A stretch of DNA of 64,000 nt from Candidatus Vogelbacteria bacterium RIFOXYB1_FULL_42_16 (GCA_001823055.1 MHTH01000005.1:34667-98666), one strand, 5' to 3'; shown: positions 1,602 to 35,484, counted from the first letter of the stretch. Notes: generated by a model from the letters alone, not told the origin. Numbers and translations: made by a program.

Positions 1602-3422
1602 ATGGAAAAACACCCTCTTCACCTCAAAAATCCAGAATTACAAACTTCGCCCGAAGTTGATCGGGCGGTCGAACGACAGGAGCGTCGAACCGACCAAAAA
1701 GTGCCTAATGATCCGACTGAGCGTATTGAAGCTTATCTTGACCGACTGGAGAATATTTTTCTTAATCCGGATGAAAGGAAACGCGAGCGCAATCTCGAGA
1801 TGTTTCGAGATAAAATTTATGACACTTTGGTTATCAAACCAGAACAGGTGCCTGAATCATATTTTGAACTTCAAAAACAAGTGGCTAGGGAACATGGCCA
1901 AGCGATTGAAAATATACCGCTAAATGTTCGGGACCAAATGATTGAAACGATCATTGCTGACCAGAAGCATTCTCTTGATCAGTGGATTGACTATTTGACC
2001 TCCGAAGATGTCGCTTATCCGCCTTGGTTTAAATATTTGGTCTGGCGAAATGTTATCAAACTTTCTCAATTTGATAAAACCCTCGGTAAATTCAAGGATC
2101 GCACTGAATCAACAGTGGCTCCTTATCCAGATATTTATCGCGCGCCATTAGCGAAAATTCTCGATATCTATGAGCAAGCGATCAAAGACAAAACCAATCT
2201 TAGAGATTCTGAAGTTCAAGCCAATTTCTCTAAACGTTTTGCCAAACTTTATGCCGAGCTGATTTCAGAATCTTTGGCAGTTCGTATCGAAAACAAAGAG
2301 GAAGTCAAAGGTGTCTGGGTTAAATATTCTAAAGGTAATATGGCCGAGGCCGATAAACTCTTTGAGTCAGTTCAGGCCAAAGGTACCGGCTGGTGCGTTG
2401 AAGGTCGAACGACGGCTCAAAACTATATCAAACAAGGTGATTTTTATGTCTATTACACGGAGGACAATAATGGCTTGCCGACTCAACCTCGTATGGCTAT
2501 CCAAATGAACGGAACGCAAATTGGTCAAATTCGAGGTGTTTTGAATCATCAAGAATTAGAACCGATCATGGCCGATGTTTTGGAGACCAAGCTCAAAGAA
2601 TTTGGGCCGGAGGCTGATAGTTACCAGAAGAAGAATTCTGACATGAAAAAGATGACGGCTATCGAAAAGAAGAGCCAATCGGGGATAGCGTTGTCAAAAG
2701 ACGATTTGGTATTTTTGTATGAAATCGGTGCTCCTATTGAAGGTTTTGGTTACGACCGCGACCCGCGCATTGCCGAGCTTCGCCAAGGCAGAAATCCAGA
2801 GGAAGACATGATGACTATTTTTGAATGTGCTAAAGAGCAAATTGCTCACTCAGCAGCAGAAATTGACGATGACACCATAGCCTATGTTGGTCCTTGGAAT
2901 GTTGCTGTTTATCAAATAATCAAAAAATATCCCCAGATTCAACATCTTTACGAATCTTTTCCTGATCAGAAAATTTTTATGATGACTCAGGAGACCGACC
3001 AGAGGATCAATTCTCTGGCTAAAGCCGAAGAGGTTTTGAAAGCCAAAAATATTTATATTTCAAATTGGGCGCAAGATATTTTGCAAAAAACTGATTTTAG
3101 TCGAGAAGCTAAAACTTACAAGTTGGTTCAATTTACTGTCGAACAGCTGGGTTTTAGTAGTGGTGCTACTACTGACCAAATTTATGCCAAGGCTCAAGAA
3201 TTAGGTTTAAAACTTTGCCCAGCGGAAGTTGGTCCACGACTTCGTCTTCAGTATGATGGTAAAGATTGGAAACTTATTGCCATGAAGCAGATTACCGATC
3301 GCGGTGGCCTTCCGAGTGTTTTCTACTTGCTTGCCGGCGGAGGGCAGTTGGGGCTCTACGCCGATGATGCTCATCCGGACCGCGGGTGGGGTTCGGGCCG
3401 CCGCTTCGTCTTTCTCTCGTAA
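1602..3422 (+). CDS. DGR target (variable) protein; C-terminal ~43 aa encoded by the variable repeat; N-terminal ~560 aa of unknown function, no obvious signal peptide
   Basis: Long ORF (track start 1584 is GTG; ATG at 1602 is more likely). Its last 128 nt are the VR copy of the downstream TR. The variable codons correspond to AAC/AAT codons in the TR, and the C-terminal ...RRFVFLS tail is conserved in both copies. Confidence 0.7.
   Translation: MEKHPLHLKNPELQTSPEVDRAVERQERRTDQKVPNDPTERIEAYLDRLENIFLNPDERKRERNLEMFRDKIYDTLVIKPEQVPESYFELQKQVAREHGQAIENIPLNVRDQMIETIIADQKHSLDQWIDYLTSEDVAYPPWFKYLVWRNVIKLSQFDKTLGKFKDRTESTVAPYPDIYRAPLAKILDIYEQAIKDKTNLRDSEVQANFSKRFAKLYAELISESLAVRIENKEEVKGVWVKYSKGNMAEADKLFESVQAKGTGWCVEGRTTAQNYIKQGDFYVYYTEDNNGLPTQPRMAIQMNGTQIGQIRGVLNHQELEPIMADVLETKLKEFGPEADSYQKKNSDMKKMTAIEKKSQSGIALSKDDLVFLYEIGAPIEGFGYDRDPRIAELRQGRNPEEDMMTIFECAKEQIAHSAAEIDDDTIAYVGPWNVAVYQIIKKYPQIQHLYESFPDQKIFMMTQETDQRINSLAKAEEVLKAKNIYISNWAQDILQKTDFSREAKTYKLVQFTVEQLGFSSGATTDQIYAKAQELGLKLCPAEVGPRLRLQYDGKDWKLIAMKQITDRGGLPSVFYLLAGGGQLGLYADDAHPDRGWGSGRRFVFLS
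3293..3420 (+). repeat. DGR variable repeat (VR) at the 3' end of the target gene
   Basis: Aligns base-for-base with 3739..3866. All 22 mismatches fall at positions where the TR has A (A->G/C/T in VR). The last ~20 nt are identical and GC-rich, consistent with an initiation-of-mutagenic-homing (IMH)-like 3' end. Confidence 0.85.
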
Positions 3423-3738
3423 GTCTTTAAATTTTGATCACTTTGGATTTTTTAGAGATTTTGTTTCTTCTTACCTTTGATTTTTGAAATTTTTTTTGTA
3501 AAATTATCTAGGCTTGATTGATTCAGACGGTTACGGCTTTCTGAAATCTGGCTAGTTGGCACATATTGAGAATGTAAATGGCCAAGGCTTTTTACAGAGG
3601 ATAGGCGTTTTTCTTTCAAAAAAGAAATCAACTTGGTGCGCGATACTGGCGGATTTTTGATCCCAAATAAAATACAGCTAAGCCATTTTATCTTTTTGAT
3701 AATCTGGTCGGCAGTGACACAGATGGTTTCGCGCACAA

Positions 3739-3866
3739 TACCGATCGCGATGGCAATCCGAATGTTTTCAACTTGAATGCCGACGAAGAGCAGTTGAAGC
3801 TCAACGCCAATGATGCTCATCCGGACAACAGGTGGAATTCGGACAACCGCTTCGTCTTTCTCTCGC
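3739..3866 (+). repeat. DGR template repeat (TR)
   Basis: Intergenic copy of the VR, rich in AAC/AAT (Asn) codons in the target reading frame. ORF 3773..4048 in the track is just the TR read in the target frame. A hairpin (CCGCA-tctacaggg-TGCGG) plus T-run follows at about 3875-3905. Confidence 0.85.
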
Positions 3867-3886
3867 CAGAGTCTTCTTTTCCGCAT

Positions 3887-4210
3887 CTACAGGGTGCGGT
3901 TTTTCTTTTCCAAATTATCAGAATTTTTCTTCCAACCACCGAGCATTTTGCCAATCTCTTCGAGTTTGAGGGCGATTTCTTCACATTGACGATGGGAAAT
4001 GAGTTTGGCTTCCCATGCGACCGAGATGAGAAATTTCAAAGTGTCTAATAATAAAATACAGCGGGATATTTTTTCAATTTTCTTGTCTTTGGCGGTAAAA
4101 TAAGCGACATATGACAAATCTAACAAGTCGAGAAATTTATTTTCTATTCTGGCGCCGATAGTATGGCGAGTATTTTTGGCAAGATGAGGAACGATATCAA
4201 TCCAAATCAA
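3887..4210 (-). CDS. avd: Accessory variability determinant (Avd)-like / 23S rRNA intervening-sequence four-helix-bundle family protein
   Basis: 107 aa. The C-terminal ...LEEIGKMLGGWKK matches the EEIGKML-G signature of the Avd/IVS-protein family. Size and position between TR and RT are typical, although it is on the opposite strand. Confidence 0.6.
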   Translation of the reverse strand: MIWIDIVPHLAKNTRHTIGARIENKFLDLLDLSYVAYFTAKDKKIEKISRCILLLDTLKFLISVAWEAKLISHRQCEEIALKLEEIGKMLGGWKKNSDNLEKKNRTL

Positions 4211-4220
4211 ATAACTCTCT

Positions 4221-5246
4221 TTGATACGACTAAGGATCGAAGCATCACCGAGAGAGAGAGAGAGTAAAAGGTGGTCGTGGCATAGTTACGATCATATCAT
4301 TTCTGTTGGAAATTTGCTTCAAGCTTGGCGAGAATTTTTGCGTGGCAAACGTCGACGCCAAGATGTTCAATTATTTTCGCTTCATTTGACTGATAATATT
4401 CTAGCACTACATAGAGAATTGACTCATAAAAATTACTGTCATGGGTCATATCAGGCTTTTAATATCAATGATCCAAAACCGCGTTCCATTCACAAGGCCA
4501 GTGTTCGTGATCGACTAATCCATCACGCTGTCTATCGTATTCTTTATCCATATTTTAATCAGAAATTTATCTATGATTCATATTCTTGTCGTTTAAACAA
4601 GGGGACCCATCGAGCGATAAATCGTCTACGAATTTTTGGTCGAAAAATTTCGCAAAATAACACCAGAACTGTCTGGGTGTTAAAGGGCGATATTAGGAAA
4701 TTTTTTGCTTCCATTGACCATCAAATTCTTATCAACATCTTAAAAAAACACGAACCAGACCCAGATATTATCTGGTTACTGGAGCAAGTGATTGGTAGTT
4801 TTTATACCGCTAGGCAAGGCCTAGGGTTGCCTTTGGGTAATCTGACCTCGCAACTACTAGTAAATATTTATATGAATGAGTTTGACCACTTTGTAAAAAG
4901 GAAATTGAAAGAAAAATTTTACATTCGTTATGCTGATGATTTTGTGATCTTGGGTGATAATAGAAAGGATTTATTAGAATTAATCCCAAAATTATCAAGT
5001 TTTTTGCTAGAACATCTTAAGCTTACTCTACATCCCAATAAAGTTTTTATTAAAACCTTAGCTTCTGGTGTAGATTTTCTTGGTTGGACTAATTTTCCTC
5101 ATCATCGGGTTCTAAGATTTACCACAAGAAGAAGAGTATTAAGAAAGATAAAAAAATCAAAAATGACCACCGCAACCATAGCTTCATATAAGGGCTTATT
5201 AATACACGGTAATACTTATAAACTGCGAAATCTATTTAAGCAATAA
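4221..5246 (+). CDS. DGR-type reverse transcriptase
   Basis: RT motifs present (…LIHHAVYRILYPYF…, YADDFVILG). Motif 4 reads LGNLTSQLLVNIYMNEFD, i.e. the (I/L)GxxxSQ signature that distinguishes DGR RTs from group II intron RTs (QG). The start is uncertain: the track start is TTG, only 10 nt from the divergent avd start. Confidence 0.85.
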   Translation: MIRLRIEASPRERESKRWSWHSYDHIISVGNLLQAWREFLRGKRRRQDVQLFSLHLTDNILALHRELTHKNYCHGSYQAFNINDPKPRSIHKASVRDRLIHHAVYRILYPYFNQKFIYDSYSCRLNKGTHRAINRLRIFGRKISQNNTRTVWVLKGDIRKFFASIDHQILINILKKHEPDPDIIWLLEQVIGSFYTARQGLGLPLGNLTSQLLVNIYMNEFDHFVKRKLKEKFYIRYADDFVILGDNRKDLLELIPKLSSFLLEHLKLTLHPNKVFIKTLASGVDFLGWTNFPHHRVLRFTTRRRVLRKIKKSKMTTATIASYKGLLIHGNTYKLRNLFKQ

Positions 5247-6800: not shown

Positions 6801-8684
6801 ATGTCTTCTCCACAGACGATTAATTATTTTGGTCAAACTGATTTTCGCGGTCGCAAGACTCGTTTTGGCATTAAGGCTGATGATCGCGCTCGCCATATGT
6901 ATATTATCGGCAAGACCGGTATGGGCAAATCAACCATGTTGGAAAACATGGCCATTCAAGATATTAAAAATGGCGAGGGCATGGCTTTTATTGATCCACA
7001 CGGTAAAACCGCCGAACTTCTGCTTGATTATGTGCCACAGGAGCGAATCAAAGATGTTATTTATTTTGCGCCGTTTGATTTGAATTACCCGATTTCTTTC
7101 AATGTGATGGAGGATGTGGGCAAAGATCAACGACACTTAGTGGCCAATGGCTTGATGGCGACTTTCAAAAAAATCTGGCCCGATGTTTGGTCGGCGCGAA
7201 TGGAATATATTTTGAACAATACTATTCTGGCGTTATTGGAATATCCGAATTCGACTTTGTTGGGAGTCAATCGGATGTTGTCGGATAAAAGTTATCGCGA
7301 TGAAGTGGTTAACAATATCTCTGATCCATCGGTCAAATCCTTTTGGGTGGATGAATTTGCCAAATACAATGAGCGATATATGCAAGAAGCCGGCGATGCG
7401 ATCAAAAACAAAATTGGTCAGTTTACTTCCAACCCGCTGATTCGTAATATCATCGGTCAACCGAAATCGACGATCGATATGCGGGCGGTGATGGATGATA
7501 AAAAGATTTTGATAATCAACTTGTCGAAAGGCCGAGTCGGTGAGCAGAACGCCAGTTTGTTGGGTGGGATGATTATCACTAAAATTTATCTCTCGGCCAT
7601 GTCGCGCGCTAATGCTTCCGAAGAAGAGTTGCGTCGTTTACCCTATTTTTATTTTTTTGTGGATGAATTTCAGTCTTTCGTCAACGATTCTTTTGCTGAT
7701 ATTTTATCGGAAGCACGGAAATATAAATTAAGTTTGACGATTGCTCACCAATATGTTGAACAAATGCCAGAAACGGTACGGAGCGCAGTCTTTGGCAACG
7801 TCGGCACGACGATTTGTTTTCGCGTCGGTCCGTTTGACGCCACGTTGTTAGAAGAAATGTTCTCGCCGACTTTTATGAAAGAAGATTTAGTCAATCTTGG
7901 TTTCGCGCAGATCTATTTAACTATGTCGATCGATGGTGTCGGCTCGCCACCTTTTTCGGCCGTGACTTTACCACCAATTGCTACCGCCGAAGAAAGTTAT
8001 AAACCGCGAATTGTAGAATTTTCGCGGGCGGCTTATGCTATGCCGAGAGAAAAAGTAGAAATTGCTATCAATGACTGGCATGAATTAAAATTTGTGACTA
8101 AAAAAAATACCACTAGTCCTTCCAGTCAGAGTAAAGATTTTTCCGCTAGAAAAACCGCCGAACCGTCGATTAAAAAAACGGAGAATCAAGAAAATAAAAG
8201 ATCAGAACCAATAGAGACCAAAAAAGAATCGGTGCCGGTTTCGACTAGACCGCTCAAACCTGCTTCCTTGAATCAACTTCGAAACGATCACCATAAAACA
8301 GTCGGTGGTCACCGTGAAGCTTTACGGAATGCCCTGCAAGACGTCTTAGCCTCCGTGGTGCAAAAAGAAAAACCAGCCGAAAAATCGGCACCAACTATCG
8401 ACGAGAAGGTAGCTAAAGATAAAAGGGGGATTGAGATAGAGAAAAAAGATCCGGTGGCTATTGATGAGGTAAAACCCGCCGACACTAAAAGCTATGGCGA
8501 GGCAAAGCCCGCTTTCACTGAAAGTTCCGGCGAGGCGAAACCAGTCTCCGCCAAAGGCTCCCAGCCTCCACAAAGTTTCGGCGGGCAGGCCGGCGAGGCG
8601 AGACCCGCCTCCGCCAAAGGCTATGGCGAGGCGAGGGAGGCGCCAGCCGAGCTCTTGAAAAAAATCCTGGCTGGTGAAGAATAG
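6801..8684 (+). CDS. P-loop ATPase, VirD4/TraG/TraD-like type IV coupling protein family, with a low-complexity GEAKPASAKG-repeat C-terminal tail
   Basis: Walker A IIGKTGMGKST and Walker B FFVDEFQSF. The overall architecture resembles T4SS coupling proteins (TraG-D_C-like region). The C-terminus carries degenerate tandem 33-nt repeats. Confidence 0.5.
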   Translation: MSSPQTINYFGQTDFRGRKTRFGIKADDRARHMYIIGKTGMGKSTMLENMAIQDIKNGEGMAFIDPHGKTAELLLDYVPQERIKDVIYFAPFDLNYPISFNVMEDVGKDQRHLVANGLMATFKKIWPDVWSARMEYILNNTILALLEYPNSTLLGVNRMLSDKSYRDEVVNNISDPSVKSFWVDEFAKYNERYMQEAGDAIKNKIGQFTSNPLIRNIIGQPKSTIDMRAVMDDKKILIINLSKGRVGEQNASLLGGMIITKIYLSAMSRANASEEELRRLPYFYFFVDEFQSFVNDSFADILSEARKYKLSLTIAHQYVEQMPETVRSAVFGNVGTTICFRVGPFDATLLEEMFSPTFMKEDLVNLGFAQIYLTMSIDGVGSPPFSAVTLPPIATAEESYKPRIVEFSRAAYAMPREKVEIAINDWHELKFVTKKNTTSPSSQSKDFSARKTAEPSIKKTENQENKRSEPIETKKESVPVSTRPLKPASLNQLRNDHHKTVGGHREALRNALQDVLASVVQKEKPAEKSAPTIDEKVAKDKRGIEIEKKDPVAIDEVKPADTKSYGEAKPAFTESSGEAKPVSAKGSQPPQSFGGQAGEARPASAKGYGEAREAPAELLKKILAGEE

Positions 8685-33876: not shown

Positions 33877-35484
33877 TCACAGAGATAGAATCTTCTCAAC
33901 CTGCCCCCGATTGATTAGATCGCGAGCAATCAAAAATTGGTCATCCGACATCTCGCCGTAATTGACTGGCGAGCCGTCTTTGGCCGTCAGGACCTTAGTC
34001 GCGTCGTCGAGTGACTCGACATAACGTTTCAAGTTTCGGTCGTGAACCGGTTGATTAGACCGATCAAAACTTAAACTGAAGCGTGAGGCCAGAATCTGTC
34101 TCACTTTTGGTTCGCTGAACATCGCTGTTCCCGGATAGGCCGTTGCGGTGAACATTTTCCGGTTGATTGAGGCAACTGCTCGTTCATACTCCGGCGTGCC
34201 GGAAATAAGACCCTCGGTCGCCTCTTCAGTCTGCCAGAGGATGAAAGCCACACTGGTCTTCAGGTCATTCAGCGTCTCACCGGGATAAGCCATAATCCAG
34301 GTGCAATTGGAATGGATTCCCACTTCATGACAATGTTTAATCCCGTCCACCATCGTGCGAGGAAAGGAATGACCGTTTATTTGGACAGATCCTCCCCTTA
34401 ACATAAATCCACCCTTGTTCATCCTGGTGAGGACCGAAGCGCTGGCGCTTTCGGCGCCAAAACCAATGTAGATACAACCGGCTTTGACCATCAGGGCCAA
34501 TCGATCATCCGCTTCGTCCAAACGAGTATGAGTACCCCAGAGCAGACCGACTTCACATTGAAAGCGCTCGGCCAGAATGGCTAAACGCTTCTTGTCTATG
34601 GCGAAATTGTCATCAGGAAAACCCAGAAAATCTAGCTGATAGCAATCCCGTAGCCAGACAGCTTCTTTGATTAAATCATCAGCGCTTCGATTGCGATATT
34701 TTTGTTGACCCTGAGTGCCTCGCCAACAAAAAGCGCAACCATGAGGACAGCCTCGCGAAGAAACGGTCGTCAGACTTCGGTCCATGGTGAAGGATGTGGC
34801 AGAACTGTTATTGGCACTTCCACCCCAGACCGGAGTCTGGATATAATCCTCCAACAACGGATAGCCATCAACATCTCGTTCCAATAGATCCCAGGCGGGA
34901 AATGGCAAACCATCCAGACATTTTAATCTGGTTCCGCGATAGACCTTTTTGTCGGCCAAGAATTGATGCCAAGCTTGATGACCTTGGTCTCGATGTCGTC
35001 TCACTTGTTCGGCGATGGTCAAGATGATCTCATCTCCTTCTCCCAAGACAATAGCGTTGAGATCGGTAATCCACGATAGGAGAGTTTCTCCTATCTCTGT
35101 CGCCAATCCGCCTCCGGAAATTATGAATGCTTCCGGAATTAGTTGGCGACAGATTTGAGCCACGGTCTCTTGCCAACGGAGGGTGGTAATCATCCCTGAT
35201 AGGGCAATGATCGCCGGCTCCCCGTCGCGATTAAAGTAACGAGAAATCAGATCCCCAGCTTCTCTTGCAGTTAAGTGGCGGCCATAAGACAATCCACGTT
35301 TTTTGGCTAGCTGATCGGAGATCCGATAGCCATTCAGATCGATGATACTTACTGCGGCATTACGCTGACGCAGATTAGCGGCCAATAAGCCCGGCCCTTG
35401 GGGGGGGGTATTGGGCCTGGCGTTTTCGCGCAGAGGCAGATTGATAATTGCCATCACCAATCCATCTAAGTTCCCATTGACCAT
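33877..35484 (-). CDS. B12-binding-domain radical SAM enzyme
   Basis: CxxxCxxC-type cluster motif SSRGCPHGCAFCW. An N-terminal cobalamin-binding-like domain. Markedly higher GC than neighbours. Contains a G9/C9 homopolymer at 35400-35408 near its 5' end. Confidence 0.8.
   Translation of the reverse strand: MVNGNLDGLVMAIINLPLRENARPNTPPQGPGLLAANLRQRNAAVSIIDLNGYRISDQLAKKRGLSYGRHLTAREAGDLISRYFNRDGEPAIIALSGMITTLRWQETVAQICRQLIPEAFIISGGGLATEIGETLLSWITDLNAIVLGEGDEIILTIAEQVRRHRDQGHQAWHQFLADKKVYRGTRLKCLDGLPFPAWDLLERDVDGYPLLEDYIQTPVWGGSANNSSATSFTMDRSLTTVSSRGCPHGCAFCWRGTQGQQKYRNRSADDLIKEAVWLRDCYQLDFLGFPDDNFAIDKKRLAILAERFQCEVGLLWGTHTRLDEADDRLALMVKAGCIYIGFGAESASASVLTRMNKGGFMLRGGSVQINGHSFPRTMVDGIKHCHEVGIHSNCTWIMAYPGETLNDLKTSVAFILWQTEEATEGLISGTPEYERAVASINRKMFTATAYPGTAMFSEPKVRQILASRFSLSFDRSNQPVHDRNLKRYVESLDDATKVLTAKDGSPVNYGEMSDDQFLIARDLINRGQVEKILSL

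Follow-up and report, generated by a model that had tools for sequence, protein, structure and literature searches.

DGRs of CPR and DPANN microbes were reportedly the subject of work by Paul et al. in 2017. The described systems closest to the locus analyzed here are the CPR-type diversity-generating retroelements (DGRs) of architecture B3 (Wu et al., 2018; PMC5758913) and the members of DGR clade 2 (Roux et al., 2021; PMC8144416). Our locus shares with them the order and orientation of template repeat (TR), reversed avd and reverse transcriptase (RT), a Patescibacteria groundwater host, a C-terminal variable repeat (VR) and a target without recognisable transmembrane segment or Pfam domain. 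No difference in kind separates them, and the locus is very probably already present in catalogues of this type. The DGR call is in itself ordinary, the B3 type having already been described for CPR bacteria. The initial annotation took both target and cassette to be probably uncharacterised, which holds for the target family, still unannotated, and not for the B3 layout, which had been catalogued in CPR. On the other points, i.e., the junction repeat, its polymorphism, the 5′ leader RNA and a survey of the target family, nothing was found in the searchable literature (Paul et al., 2017 being outside this scope).

In the DGR of Bordetella phage BPP-1 the order is mtd-VR, avd, TR, Sp, brt, and its RNA contains an Avd-binding stem-loop and the cPRT Stop (Handa et al., bioRxiv 10.1101/2023.10.23.563531). 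Like BPP-1, our locus has an adenine-specific pattern of apparent TR-to-VR transfer, an RT homologous to Brt, an Avd-like ORF and a variable domain of C-type-lectin (CLec) fold. A stem-loop follows TR closely on its 3′ side, as in BPP-1, and the sequences flanking TR could form a duplex. Unlike in BPP-1, avd is here on the opposite strand and divergent from RT, and a simple repeat lies inside its 5′ end. The conserved structured RNA is found 5′ of TR, whereas BPP-1 has a 140-nt spacer 3′ of TR, and the 3′ side ends here in a terminator-like hairpin. Finally, the element is chromosomal and cellular, with a target that looks like a cytoplasmic protein and not like a phage tail fibre.

Simple-sequence repeat (SSR) contingency loci are a third term of comparison, and include the phase-variable genes of Neisseria, Haemophilus and Campylobacter, the repeat in the divergent hifA/hifB promoter, and the phasevarions. 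The resemblance lies in a hypermutable repeat placed between divergent genes and close to the start of an ORF, with a motif that is interchangeable among relatives and a natural length polymorphism that shifts the frame. However, the gene concerned is here a component of a mutagenesis machine instead of a surface antigen or a methyltransferase, and the hosts, in contrast to those of the Neisseria, Haemophilus and Campylobacter loci, are uncultivated CPR bacteria. Taken as a whole, the locus is probably best explained as a CPR-type DGR with a stand-alone TR RNA and a proposed (GA)n switch of Avd.

The retroelement and its target

We have hardly any doubt that this is a genuine chromosomal DGR of the CPR type. 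The layout is architecture B3, i.e., target with VR, TR in forward orientation, avd in reverse and RT in forward. Both the DGR call and the layout follow from the adenine-only mismatches, the Brt-like RT, the Avd-like ORF and the C-terminus modelled as a CLec fold, and the components that the initial annotation had named (RT, Avd, TR/VR and target) were each backed by an independent test. Within the window (the whole 64-kb stretch of DNA analyzed) they are located as follows.

1602..3422, plus strand: target gene, 606 aa from ATG 1602
2826..3419, plus strand: C-terminal domain of the target, modelled as a divergent C-type-lectin fold, carrying the VR (aa 415-612 in the 612-aa numbering)
3293..3419, plus strand: VR, the last 42 target codons, a 127-nt ungapped match to TR
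3739..3865, plus strand: TR, non-coding, same strand as RT
3887..4210, minus strand: annotated avd, a 107-aa ORF with a TTG start, truncated at its N-terminus with respect to a 132-aa form
4221..5246, plus strand: DGR reverse transcriptase (RVT_1), 341 aa from TTG, read through the junction repeat

VR and TR differ by 22 mismatches in 127 nt, every one at a TR adenine, so that 22 of the 33 TR adenines are changed in VR (hypergeometric chance of 22/22 on adenines ~7e-18). The spectrum from TR to VR is A>G 14, A>C 4 and A>T 4, correcting the 13, 5 and 4 given initially, and letting the match begin 2 nt earlier, at 3291, adds one further A>T. The repeat had been described as 128 nt long, ungapped and free of mismatches off adenine. 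It is indeed ungapped, although its length is 127 nt (3293-3419 versus 3739-3865), and adenine specificity is strict over these 127 nt, while the extra last base (3420 T versus 3866 C) is a mismatch that falls outside the repeat, at the first base of the TAA stop. The 22 changes, all at the first or second codon position, are spread over 16 codons, nine of them AAY, as had been stated for the variable positions in general, and the other seven GAT, GAC (twice), GAA, GAG, AAG and AGG. The 3′-terminal 19 nt, CCGCTTCGTCTTTCTCTCG, are adenine-free and identical in TR and VR, in agreement with the invariant, IMH-like 3′ end already reported, and the two copies diverge right after them. TR lies between genes, on the strand of the RT ORF, which begins 355 nt further downstream, and adjoins the 3′ end of avd at the equivalent position in all related cassettes. 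No second VR was found in the 64-kb window on either strand, and the terminator scan detected no GC-rich hairpin 3′ of VR.

The motifs LGNLTSQ and YADD are both legible in the RT ORF (4221-5246), where a DGR-type motif 4 (LGxxxSQ) and YADD had been claimed. The best PDB match of the RT is Brt of the Bordetella phage (8ub7, E 1.3e-44), the closest of its relatives with a solved structure by 25 orders of magnitude (8.8e-19 for the best RT of a group II intron, ~3e-18 for retron-type RTs in the same comparison), and by this measure the RT is not nearer to group II introns or retrons, as anticipated. That TR and VR are an ordinary duplication followed by drift, next to an RT of a group II intron or retron, has a negligible probability: the top NCBIfam match of the RT is a group II intron RT/maturase model, but its 141.8 bits are far under the cut-off of 300, motif 4 speaks against such an origin, no intron or retron RNA family was found at the locus, and the adenine-only mismatches and the Brt E-value rule this reading out. 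The 107-aa ORF, correctly recognised as carrying an Avd signature (EEIGKMLGG), lies on the minus strand, a point not given initially, and matches Pfam bAvd (PF22296, E 4e-14, 53.4 bits for a cut-off of 40). Against NCBIfam DivGenRetAVD it reaches 65.3 bits, under the equivalog cut-off of 80.

For the target, a 612-aa ORF had been indicated. This is the maximal ORF, from GTG 1584, but the likeliest start is ATG 1602, which gives 606 aa as in the homologues. The protein is built of a conserved body of ~410 aa, a helical linker and the C-terminal variable domain. Structure prediction, a check that had been proposed for the C-terminus, models it as a divergent CLec fold with the VR as its C-terminal part. 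This is also the position of the VR in the DGR variable proteins Mtd, TvpA (2y3c) and FGE-sulfatase-like targets, in which the variable residues likewise derive from A-containing codons at positions 1 and 2. The target is identical to the hypothetical protein US72_C0002G0055 of Microgenomates bacterium GW2011_GWC1_38_12 and has more than 2100 full-length homologues, many of them without a DGR nearby. There was no sequence match to Pfam, NCBIfam or PDB and no hydrophobic segment (maximum KD19 1.01), and the family, which is large and unannotated, is apparently cytoplasmic. A cassette with adenine-specific TR/VR mismatches adjoins homologous target genes in ~34 other genomes (per 110 nt there are 11-25 mismatches, of which TR adenines account for nearly all), and the same cassette was found again at ~100 other loci. 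In sister lineages 25-48% of the columns that vary within 90%-identity clusters fall in the last 50 aa, which make up 8% of the length.

The RNA around the template repeat

TR very likely lies in a structured, self-contained, stand-alone ncRNA. The elements on which this is based are listed here together with an overlapping ORF.

3452..3886, minus strand: 144-aa ORF antisense to TR and leader, called as a gene in public annotations
3477..3504, plus strand: promoter-like element, TTGATT-16-TAAAAT with a TG-extended -10, putative, from a consensus scan
3523..3614, plus strand: structured 5′ leader, with hairpins P1 (3524-3543) and P3 (3573-3596)
3618..3627, plus strand: leader purine block AAAAAAGAAA, with a predicted partner in the pyrimidine block 3872-3880 just past TR
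3636..3736, plus strand: long-range helix P4, 3636-3647 pairing with 3725-3736
3881..3909, plus strand: GC-rich stem-loop (3881-3899) and T-run (3900-3909), from the terminator scan, 15 nt past TR

The leader is supported by covariation. The loops of P1 and P3 are alike (CGG-YTAC-GGCTT-like), 29 of 33 pairs show compensatory changes (RNAalifold), and 94.8% of the cells are paired, compared with 72.8 ± 0.9% when shuffled and 35-54% when slid. In the window the covariance model R1 matches once (E 4e-20), and it also matches 48 other DGR loci; among RT-anchored loci it was found in 46 of the 54 eligible, always on the RT strand. The leader belongs to no Rfam family, and at gathering threshold there was no Rfam 15 match over the whole window on both strands. 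Upstream, a -10-like block (TtG.TAtAcT) is kept at the position of the promoter-like element in 33 loci. Downstream, P4 has 12 pairs, 10 of them changed on both sides (92.9% paired), and the domain that it closes ends 2 nt ahead of TR.

The predicted pairing of the purine block with 3872-3880 would bracket TR by a duplex. Such a purine/pyrimidine duplex is possible in 32 of the 32 loci examined, at -6.15 kcal/mol for the own partners versus -5.27 ± 0.28 for permuted ones (none of 200 permutations reached the own value), and matched variants such as AAATGAAG/CTTCATTT occur. In the 33 distinct related sequences TR is always followed by a hairpin and T-run (median z -2.9), the stems differing in sequence, and in the related loci there is no conserved structure 3′ of this hairpin. 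It is likely to serve the TR RNA as intrinsic terminator and/or to be the counterpart of the “Avd-binding stem-loop” of Handa et al. The 144-aa ORF is most likely spurious, since it overlaps on the opposite strand with the covariation-supported RNA and TR and has no family hit.

Following the Bordetella phage paradigm, a stand-alone RNA of ~400 nt would start from a promoter near 3477-3504 and comprise the structured leader, TR, and the stem-loop with its U-run. RT and Avd would bind this RNA and reverse-transcribe it, misincorporating opposite the template adenines, and the cDNA would then replace VR, recoding up to 16-17 codons on the tip of the CLec fold of the ~606-aa cytoplasmic target. 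By the same analogy we infer where priming takes place and what the leader does.

The repeat at the avd/RT junction

The annotated avd and RT genes are divergent, and between them the following features were identified.

4211..4249, minus strand: stretch of 13 codons, GDASILSRIKESY, preceding the annotated start of avd and selected at the protein level in the avd frame
4245..4283, minus strand: avd ATG and the 12-codon frame, MPRPPFTLSLSR and a stop, that it opens in the (GA)7 copy (by translation)
4250..4264, no strand assigned: (GA)7G SSR that separates the avd ATG from the body of the gene

(GA)7 is the sole dinucleotide repeat of at least 6 units in the 64 kb, and either directly precedes the RT ORF or lies in its 5′ end. 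The conserved N-terminus of RT begins at the His codon at 4281, and the avd ATG (4283-4281) is the reverse complement of this CAT. A simple repeat is present at the avd/RT junction in 34 of 34 related genome loci and at least 68 of 71 metagenomic loci. Its motif is one of four that are unrelated to each other, (GA)n, poly-G, (GT)n or (CTGG)n.

We compared nine assemblies of the locus, the window included, and found (GA)7 in six and (GA)8 in three. Between target and tract, over 2,666 nt, there was no mismatch, so that each of VR and TR is the same in all nine, and beyond the tract (~2,150 nt compared) there were 0-16 substitutions; the number of GA units was the only length difference. With (GA)8 the ATG opens a 132-aa Avd, and an ATG-started RT ORF is opened as well. 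With (GA)7, as in the window, the frame from the ATG stops after 12 codons, so that the initial description of the DGR as complete, right in that its parts are present, is too generous for a copy in which avd is cut off from its ATG. When n is varied from 4 to 11, translation gives three states of the frame. In a second lineage (GA)10 and at least (GA)13 are found with an identical target protein; the poly-G lineage is not dependable for length polymorphism, because poly-G tract lengths are unreliable in assemblies. The junction combines two marks of a contingency locus, a frame-altering 5′ repeat and natural length polymorphism on an otherwise identical background.

That the (GA)n tract acts as an on/off switch for Avd is, in our judgment, an evenly balanced proposal. 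The avd frame would run from ATG 4283 through the hypermutable tract into the Avd body. Since slippage shifts this frame, it would toggle full-length Avd, and hence mutagenic retrohoming, on and off in a heritable manner, and in this lineage it would also alter the start codon usable by the RT ORF. In the (GA)7 state of the window only the truncated 107-aa Avd could be made, a form that may be functional; the sister (GA)8 state would restore the 132-aa Avd together with the ATG-started RT ORF. If this is true, a lineage could diversify its variable protein in bursts and then lock in a variant, and a mutator would be under the control of a mutable repeat. More tentatively, CPR-type DGRs at large might have a built-in, heritable and stochastic switch in the avd repeat, along with a differently organised DGR RNA in which the structure that positions RT and Avd would be 5′ of the template and not in a 3′ spacer. 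At the consensus level VR was identical in the five members of the 90% cluster and in the nine assemblies, so that current DGR activity is not evident from them, and it was invariant in both repeat states, so that no link of repeat state to activity was seen.

A different function of the tract is rather unlikely, although part of the data would fit it. Avd could start at or near the TTG, and the tract could be a 5′-UTR or promoter element of the divergent avd and RT, i.e., a purine-rich ribosome-binding site for RT, a spacer in the promoter (as in hifA/hifB of H. influenzae) or a regulator forming non-B-DNA (H-DNA, G4 or Z-DNA). The frame from the start beyond the tract is open in 33 of 97 consensus sequences (15/34 genome and 18/63 metagenome), which is the expectation for random tract lengths and gives no sign of selection for the in-frame state. 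The RT ATG lies 1-40 nt past the tract in 17 of 34 genome loci and in many metagenome loci, where (GA)n or poly-G would be placed like a Shine-Dalgarno (SD) sequence. Also in keeping with this reading, a GAGG-like motif precedes the avd TTG, and the Pfam and NCBIfam Avd profiles do not reach into the N-terminal extension. However, the 13 codons before the TTG are clearly constrained at the protein level in the avd frame, as far as the tract. Among 25 distinct loci the pairwise differences at the three codon positions are 950:366:1382, Arg, Leu and Ile codons switch synonymously, and in most loci there is no canonical start between tract and TTG. Besides, three loci have (GT)n or (CTGG)n at this site, which are not rich in purines and do not resemble an SD sequence, and tract lengths of 8 to 44 nt among loci are at odds with a role in fixed spacing.

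It is less probable that the DGR of this lineage is a decaying or dormant relic. The frozen VR described above, the frameshifted avd in six of the nine copies, and the loss from RT of the post-tract ATG of its relatives (the aligned codon is AGG in the window) would all agree with decay. Yet TR is intact with zero non-adenine differences to VR in 127 nt, the leader RNA matches the family model with 79 bits, the other ORFs are intact, and one added repeat unit restores both ATG-started frames; moreover, the relatives show out-of-frame states just as often.

The frame might instead be restored by transcriptional slippage or ribosomal frameshifting, the repeat throttling the DGR with a constant small fraction of full-length Avd in every genotype, which we consider a fairly remote prospect. 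Long homopolymers are known slippage sites, and restoration at the level of RNA or ribosome would explain why tract length is random modulo 3 despite the conserved upstream codons. But for dinucleotide and tetranucleotide repeats slippage is far less well established than for homopolymers, and the polymorphism of the tract at the DNA level is real.

The retroelement and its target

The repeat scan of the window found one long direct repeat with an offset of 446 nt, formed by the template repeat (TR) and the variable repeat (VR) at the 3' end of the target gene. Together with the coding features they make up the following element:

1584 or 1602 to 3422, plus strand: target open reading frame (ORF), whose hypervariable C-terminus carries the VR
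3293-3419, within the target ORF: VR
3739-3865, plus strand: TR
3452-3886, minus strand: ORF of 144 aa, antisense to the TR and the structured leader; the protein is in public gene calls
3887-4210, minus strand: avd (accessory protein), ORF of 107 aa
4221-5246, plus strand: reverse transcriptase (RT) ORF
4250-4264, avd/RT junction: (GA)7G tract, the sole dinucleotide repeat of at least 6 units in the 64 kb

Compared base by base, VR and TR align ungapped over 127 nt, and not 128 nt as in the initial annotation; position 3420/3866 (T vs C), where the stop codon begins, lies outside the repeat. All 22 mismatches fall at TR adenines, as had been claimed, with 22 of the 33 adenines altered (P about 7e-18 that 22/22 would fall on adenines by chance, hypergeometric). 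The count stood, and the spectrum is corrected from 13/5/4 to A>G 14, A>C 4 and A>T 4. The changes are confined to codon positions 1 or 2 of the VR and hit 16 codons, nine of them AAY, i.e., the proposed location in AAC/AAT codons holds for these nine and fails for the other seven. The two copies do not differ in their 3'-most 19 nt, a stretch that has no adenine, in agreement with the invariant 3' end described before. No further TR copies or extra VRs were found on either strand of the 64-kb window.

The best solved relative of the RT was Brt, the RT of the Bordetella phage BPP-1 diversity-generating retroelement (DGR) (8ub7, E 1.3e-44, residues 23-311 aligned), vs. 8.8e-19 for the best group II intron RT and about 3e-18 for retron-type RTs, and both LGNLTSQ and YADD are read in the ORF, which bears out its assignment to the DGR type. 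The 107-aa ORF is indeed Avd-like, being encoded on the minus strand and matching Pfam bAvd (PF22296) with E 4e-14, above the cut-off; against NCBIfam DivGenRetAVD it scored 65 bits, under the cut-off of 80. The adenine-only mismatches, the bAvd match and the Brt-like RT support the reading of the element as a DGR. It belongs to a type already known, the B3 architecture that made up 90% of the CPR set of Wu et al. (2018; PMC5758913), and the DGR call alone is routine. The 144-aa ORF is most likely a spurious gene call.

A hypothetical protein with exactly the target sequence is encoded by Microgenomates bacterium GW2011_GWC1_38_12, which places the host among the groundwater CPR bacteria; the target has more than 2,100 full-length homologues at 55-68% identity. 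Its family comprises 4,359 cluster representatives at 50% identity, with relatives encoded in 341 species-level genomes; many members share only the N-terminal ~410 aa and differ in their C-termini. The alignment has a conserved body and a last stretch of ~45 residues that is hypervariable on a fixed scaffold. Nothing from Pfam, NCBIfam or PDB could be assigned to the target, searched as a single sequence, with all 45 members or as a profile; 10 longer fused relatives had no useful match in Pfam, and Foldseek of the full-length protein against PDB gave C-type-lectin-like (CTLD) matches only, all insignificant. Targets of CPR DGRs (clade 2) have been described as having no recognisable domains (Roux et al., 2021; PMC8144416). 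Neither a signal peptide nor a hydrophobic segment was detected in the target (maximum KD19 1.01). Our working view is that it would be an intracellular recognition protein with a diversified C-type-lectin (CLec) tip. With thousands of members, this cytoplasmic-looking family of CLec tips on a conserved unannotated body is a candidate for an intracellular recognition function, and it is among the larger unannotated protein families in CPR bacteria.

In the population of the window there was no consensus-level diversification of the VR, which is the same in all five sequences of the 90%-identity cluster of the target; eight further assemblies of the locus agree base for base with the window from the start of the target up to the avd/RT junction (2,666 nt), a comparison that takes in both VR and TR. 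Variation within 90% clusters of sister lineages is found mainly in the VR: 19/54, 23/91, 25/83 and 21/44 of the variable columns lie in the last 50 aa, which make up 8% of the length, and these columns coincide with the variable positions of the scaffold, indicating that the DGRs of this family do diversify in nature. One VR haplotype in the cluster of target protein P0103 is chimera-like (P0312 vs. P0303/P0302), its halves matching two different haplotypes, and could come from partial retrohoming or from recombination within the VR.

Across 80 loci, RT and avd were divergent in every locus having both, and the TR was on the RT strand just past the avd 3' end, with this TR-avd-RT module found on either side of the target and in either orientation. 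The TR/VR pairs of ~34 loci differ at 11-25 positions per 110 nt, and TR adenines account for nearly all of these. About 25 of the 66 surveyed family members lacked all of TR, RT and avd within 6 kb, indicating that the family is not obligatorily linked to a DGR, or else is targeted in trans. Loci of this DGR-less kind are L016, L018, L023, L025, L040, L043, L044, L046, L047, L059, L060, L096-L103 and L190, and one orphan target (P0037) lies between holB and frr, amid housekeeping genes that also include mreB. In three loci (L002 5329-5438, L009 2217-2326 and L068 2230-2339) an adenine-biased TR adjoins the target, and tblastn detected no RT or avd in the fetched flanks.

The simple repeat at the avd/RT junction

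When the target-anchored junctions were aligned, each had such a repeat on the RT strand: (GA)n tracts span 11-44 nt and poly-G tracts 8-14 nt, and junctions that are otherwise alike may differ in motif. An RT-anchored search gave 80 metagenomic loci, 71 of them with enough upstream sequence, and (GA)n or poly-G was found in 65/71; three more carried (GT)n or (CTGG)9 at the same site. Many of these repeat-bearing DGRs have no member of the target family nearby. Over loci L001-L080 and L104-L183, nearly all CPR-type DGRs examined carry a repeat of one of these kinds at the junction. That one conserved position is occupied by four unrelated motifs points to selection that would act on the instability of the repeat and not on a particular sequence.

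The length of the tract sets the reading frames on both strands:

Reading frames of avd and RT by tract length
(GA)7 (window): avd, translation from the ATG gives MPRPPFTLSLSR and ends just past the tract, which leaves only the 107-aa ORF from TTG; RT, 341 aa from TTG 4221, reading through the tract
(GA)8: avd, 132 aa from ATG (MPRPPFTLSLSLGDASIL...); RT, ATG-opened frame of 361 aa
(GA)6 or (GA)9: avd, without a start beyond the tract; RT, without a start ahead of its conserved N-terminus

From the tract to the annotated TTG there are 13 codons, which encode the conserved peptide [DN][NS]ASIL[NQ]RIKEGY, with synonymous switching of Arg, Leu and Ile codons and pairwise differences in the avd frame distributed 950:366:1382 over the three codon positions. 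In most loci no canonical start separates this peptide from the tract, and the nearest avd start is the ATG beyond the tract, which on the opposite strand is the conserved His codon of the RT N-terminus (CAT, 4281-4283). On the other side, a conserved avd His codon (VPH, 4182-4184) is the reverse complement of an RT-frame ATG usable with (GA)8, and at this length the ORFs opened by the two ATGs would share ~120 nt in antisense. The Pfam match of the 132-aa Avd stops short of the extra N-terminus, and the Avd profile models do not reach into this extension. About half of the relatives have an RT ATG of their own 1-40 nt past the tract, so that the tract there affects avd only.

The repeat is polymorphic in nature. 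In the eight other assemblies of the locus (NCBI, ENA and Logan, different assemblers) the tract is (GA)7 in five and (GA)8 in three, and gene calls alternate between avd of 107 aa with RT of 341 aa and avd of 132 aa with RT of 310 aa. The 2,666 nt ahead of the tract are the same in all copies; in the ~2,150 nt compared past it, copies differ by 0-16 substitutions, and the tract is the only indel. A second (GA)n lineage had (GA)10 vs. at least (GA)13 in six runs with an identical target protein, the contigs being broken inside the tract in 5/6. In both clean lineages the repeat length varies and the VR is constant. A poly-G lineage (P0062) also varies in tract length and was dropped as a second case, its assemblies being garbled, duplicated or broken at the tract.

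These frames suggest that the repeat may be a switch of avd and DGR activity, a hypothesis with good structural support. The start beyond the tract is in frame in 15/34 genome loci and 18/63 metagenome loci, and the total of 33/97 is the one-third expected of random tract lengths. This proportion would fit a switch that is fast, under weak selection and off most of the time; it also fits restoration of the avd frame at the RNA level, or a tract that is left untranslated. No paper tying simple repeats or phase variation to DGRs or to Avd was found in the searchable literature, which left Paul et al. (2017) outside, and as far as we searched within it the junction repeat, its natural polymorphism and the 5' leader RNA are undescribed. 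The repeat bears on how DGR mutagenesis is regulated, on why elements differ in being active or silent and on how a useful variant is kept: near-universal, polymorphic and located in the avd frame, it provides a concrete hypothesis for CPR bacteria, the largest natural reservoir of DGRs, and one that is testable from sequence data. Together with its polymorphism and the leader RNA, it opens the regulation of DGR activity to direct testing.

The template RNA and its leader

The TR appears to be embedded in a self-contained non-coding RNA gene (3505-3910), with a promoter-like element, a leader, the TR and a hairpin followed by a U-run:

3477-3504, upstream of the TR: conserved promoter-like element, extended -10-like
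3524-3543, plus strand: leader P1, predicted structure
3573-3596, plus strand: leader P3, predicted structure
3618-3627 with 3872-3880, plus strand: possible bracketing duplex of a purine block and a pyrimidine block just past the TR, from pairing energies
3636-3647 with 3725-3736, plus strand: predicted long-range helix
3881-3899, plus strand: 3' hairpin, terminator by scan

The leader of ~230 nt on the 5' side of the TR has strong covariation. RNAalifold predicted 33 pairs, 29 of which hold through changes on both sides, and 94.8% of the cells are paired, vs. 72.8 +/- 0.9% in shuffles (0/500 reach it) and 35-54% with slid partners. The covariance model R1, covering the two-hairpin part of the leader, had one match in the window (E 4e-20) and matched 48 RT-anchored loci, 46/54 of those with enough upstream sequence, always on the RT strand and 650-800 nt upstream of the RT; Rfam had no match anywhere in the window. 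For the possible bracketing duplex, which resembles the published cPRT Stop duplex, own partners gave -6.15 vs. -5.27 +/- 0.28 kcal/mol for permuted ones (0/200 reach it).

On the 3' side, a GC-rich hairpin followed by TTTTTCTTTT or TTTTGTTTT was found 12-20 nt past the TR in 33/33 distinct sequences, with stems that differ in sequence (CCGCG..., CTCTCC..., CCTTGCG... and others). Folded singly against dinucleotide-shuffled controls, these flanks gave a median z of -2.9. Handa et al. (bioRxiv 10.1101/2023.10.23.563531) describe stem-loops at this place in many DGRs, among them those of CPR, and regard them as putative Avd-binding elements; the roles of terminator and Avd-binding element are both possible. 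The 190 nt past the hairpin, antisense to avd, had no conserved structure, which argues against a Bordetella-like 3' spacer antisense within avd. The Bordetella element has its structured RNA entirely within the 3' spacer; here it is 5' of the template. The covariation-supported leader indicates that DGR ribonucleoproteins have layouts other than the one solved for Bordetella phage, and its covariance model is usable to find TRs and DGRs in metagenomes.

Other repeats in the window

A 48-bp perfect palindrome (423-470, two 24-nt arms without spacer) lies in a MurC-like ORF (20-1351), continues its reading frame as ...PEGNPREISLGLPSG... and resembles an inserted element. Four imperfect 33-nt tandem repeats (8461-8622) lie in the low-complexity C-terminal part of a 627-aa ORF (6801-8684). 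The only other long homopolymer or dinucleotide tract of the window is a G9 (C9 on the coding strand) at 35400-35408. It lies in a radical-SAM-like ORF of 535 aa (33877-35484, minus strand), ~26 codons from the start, and this is possibly another slippage-prone gene.
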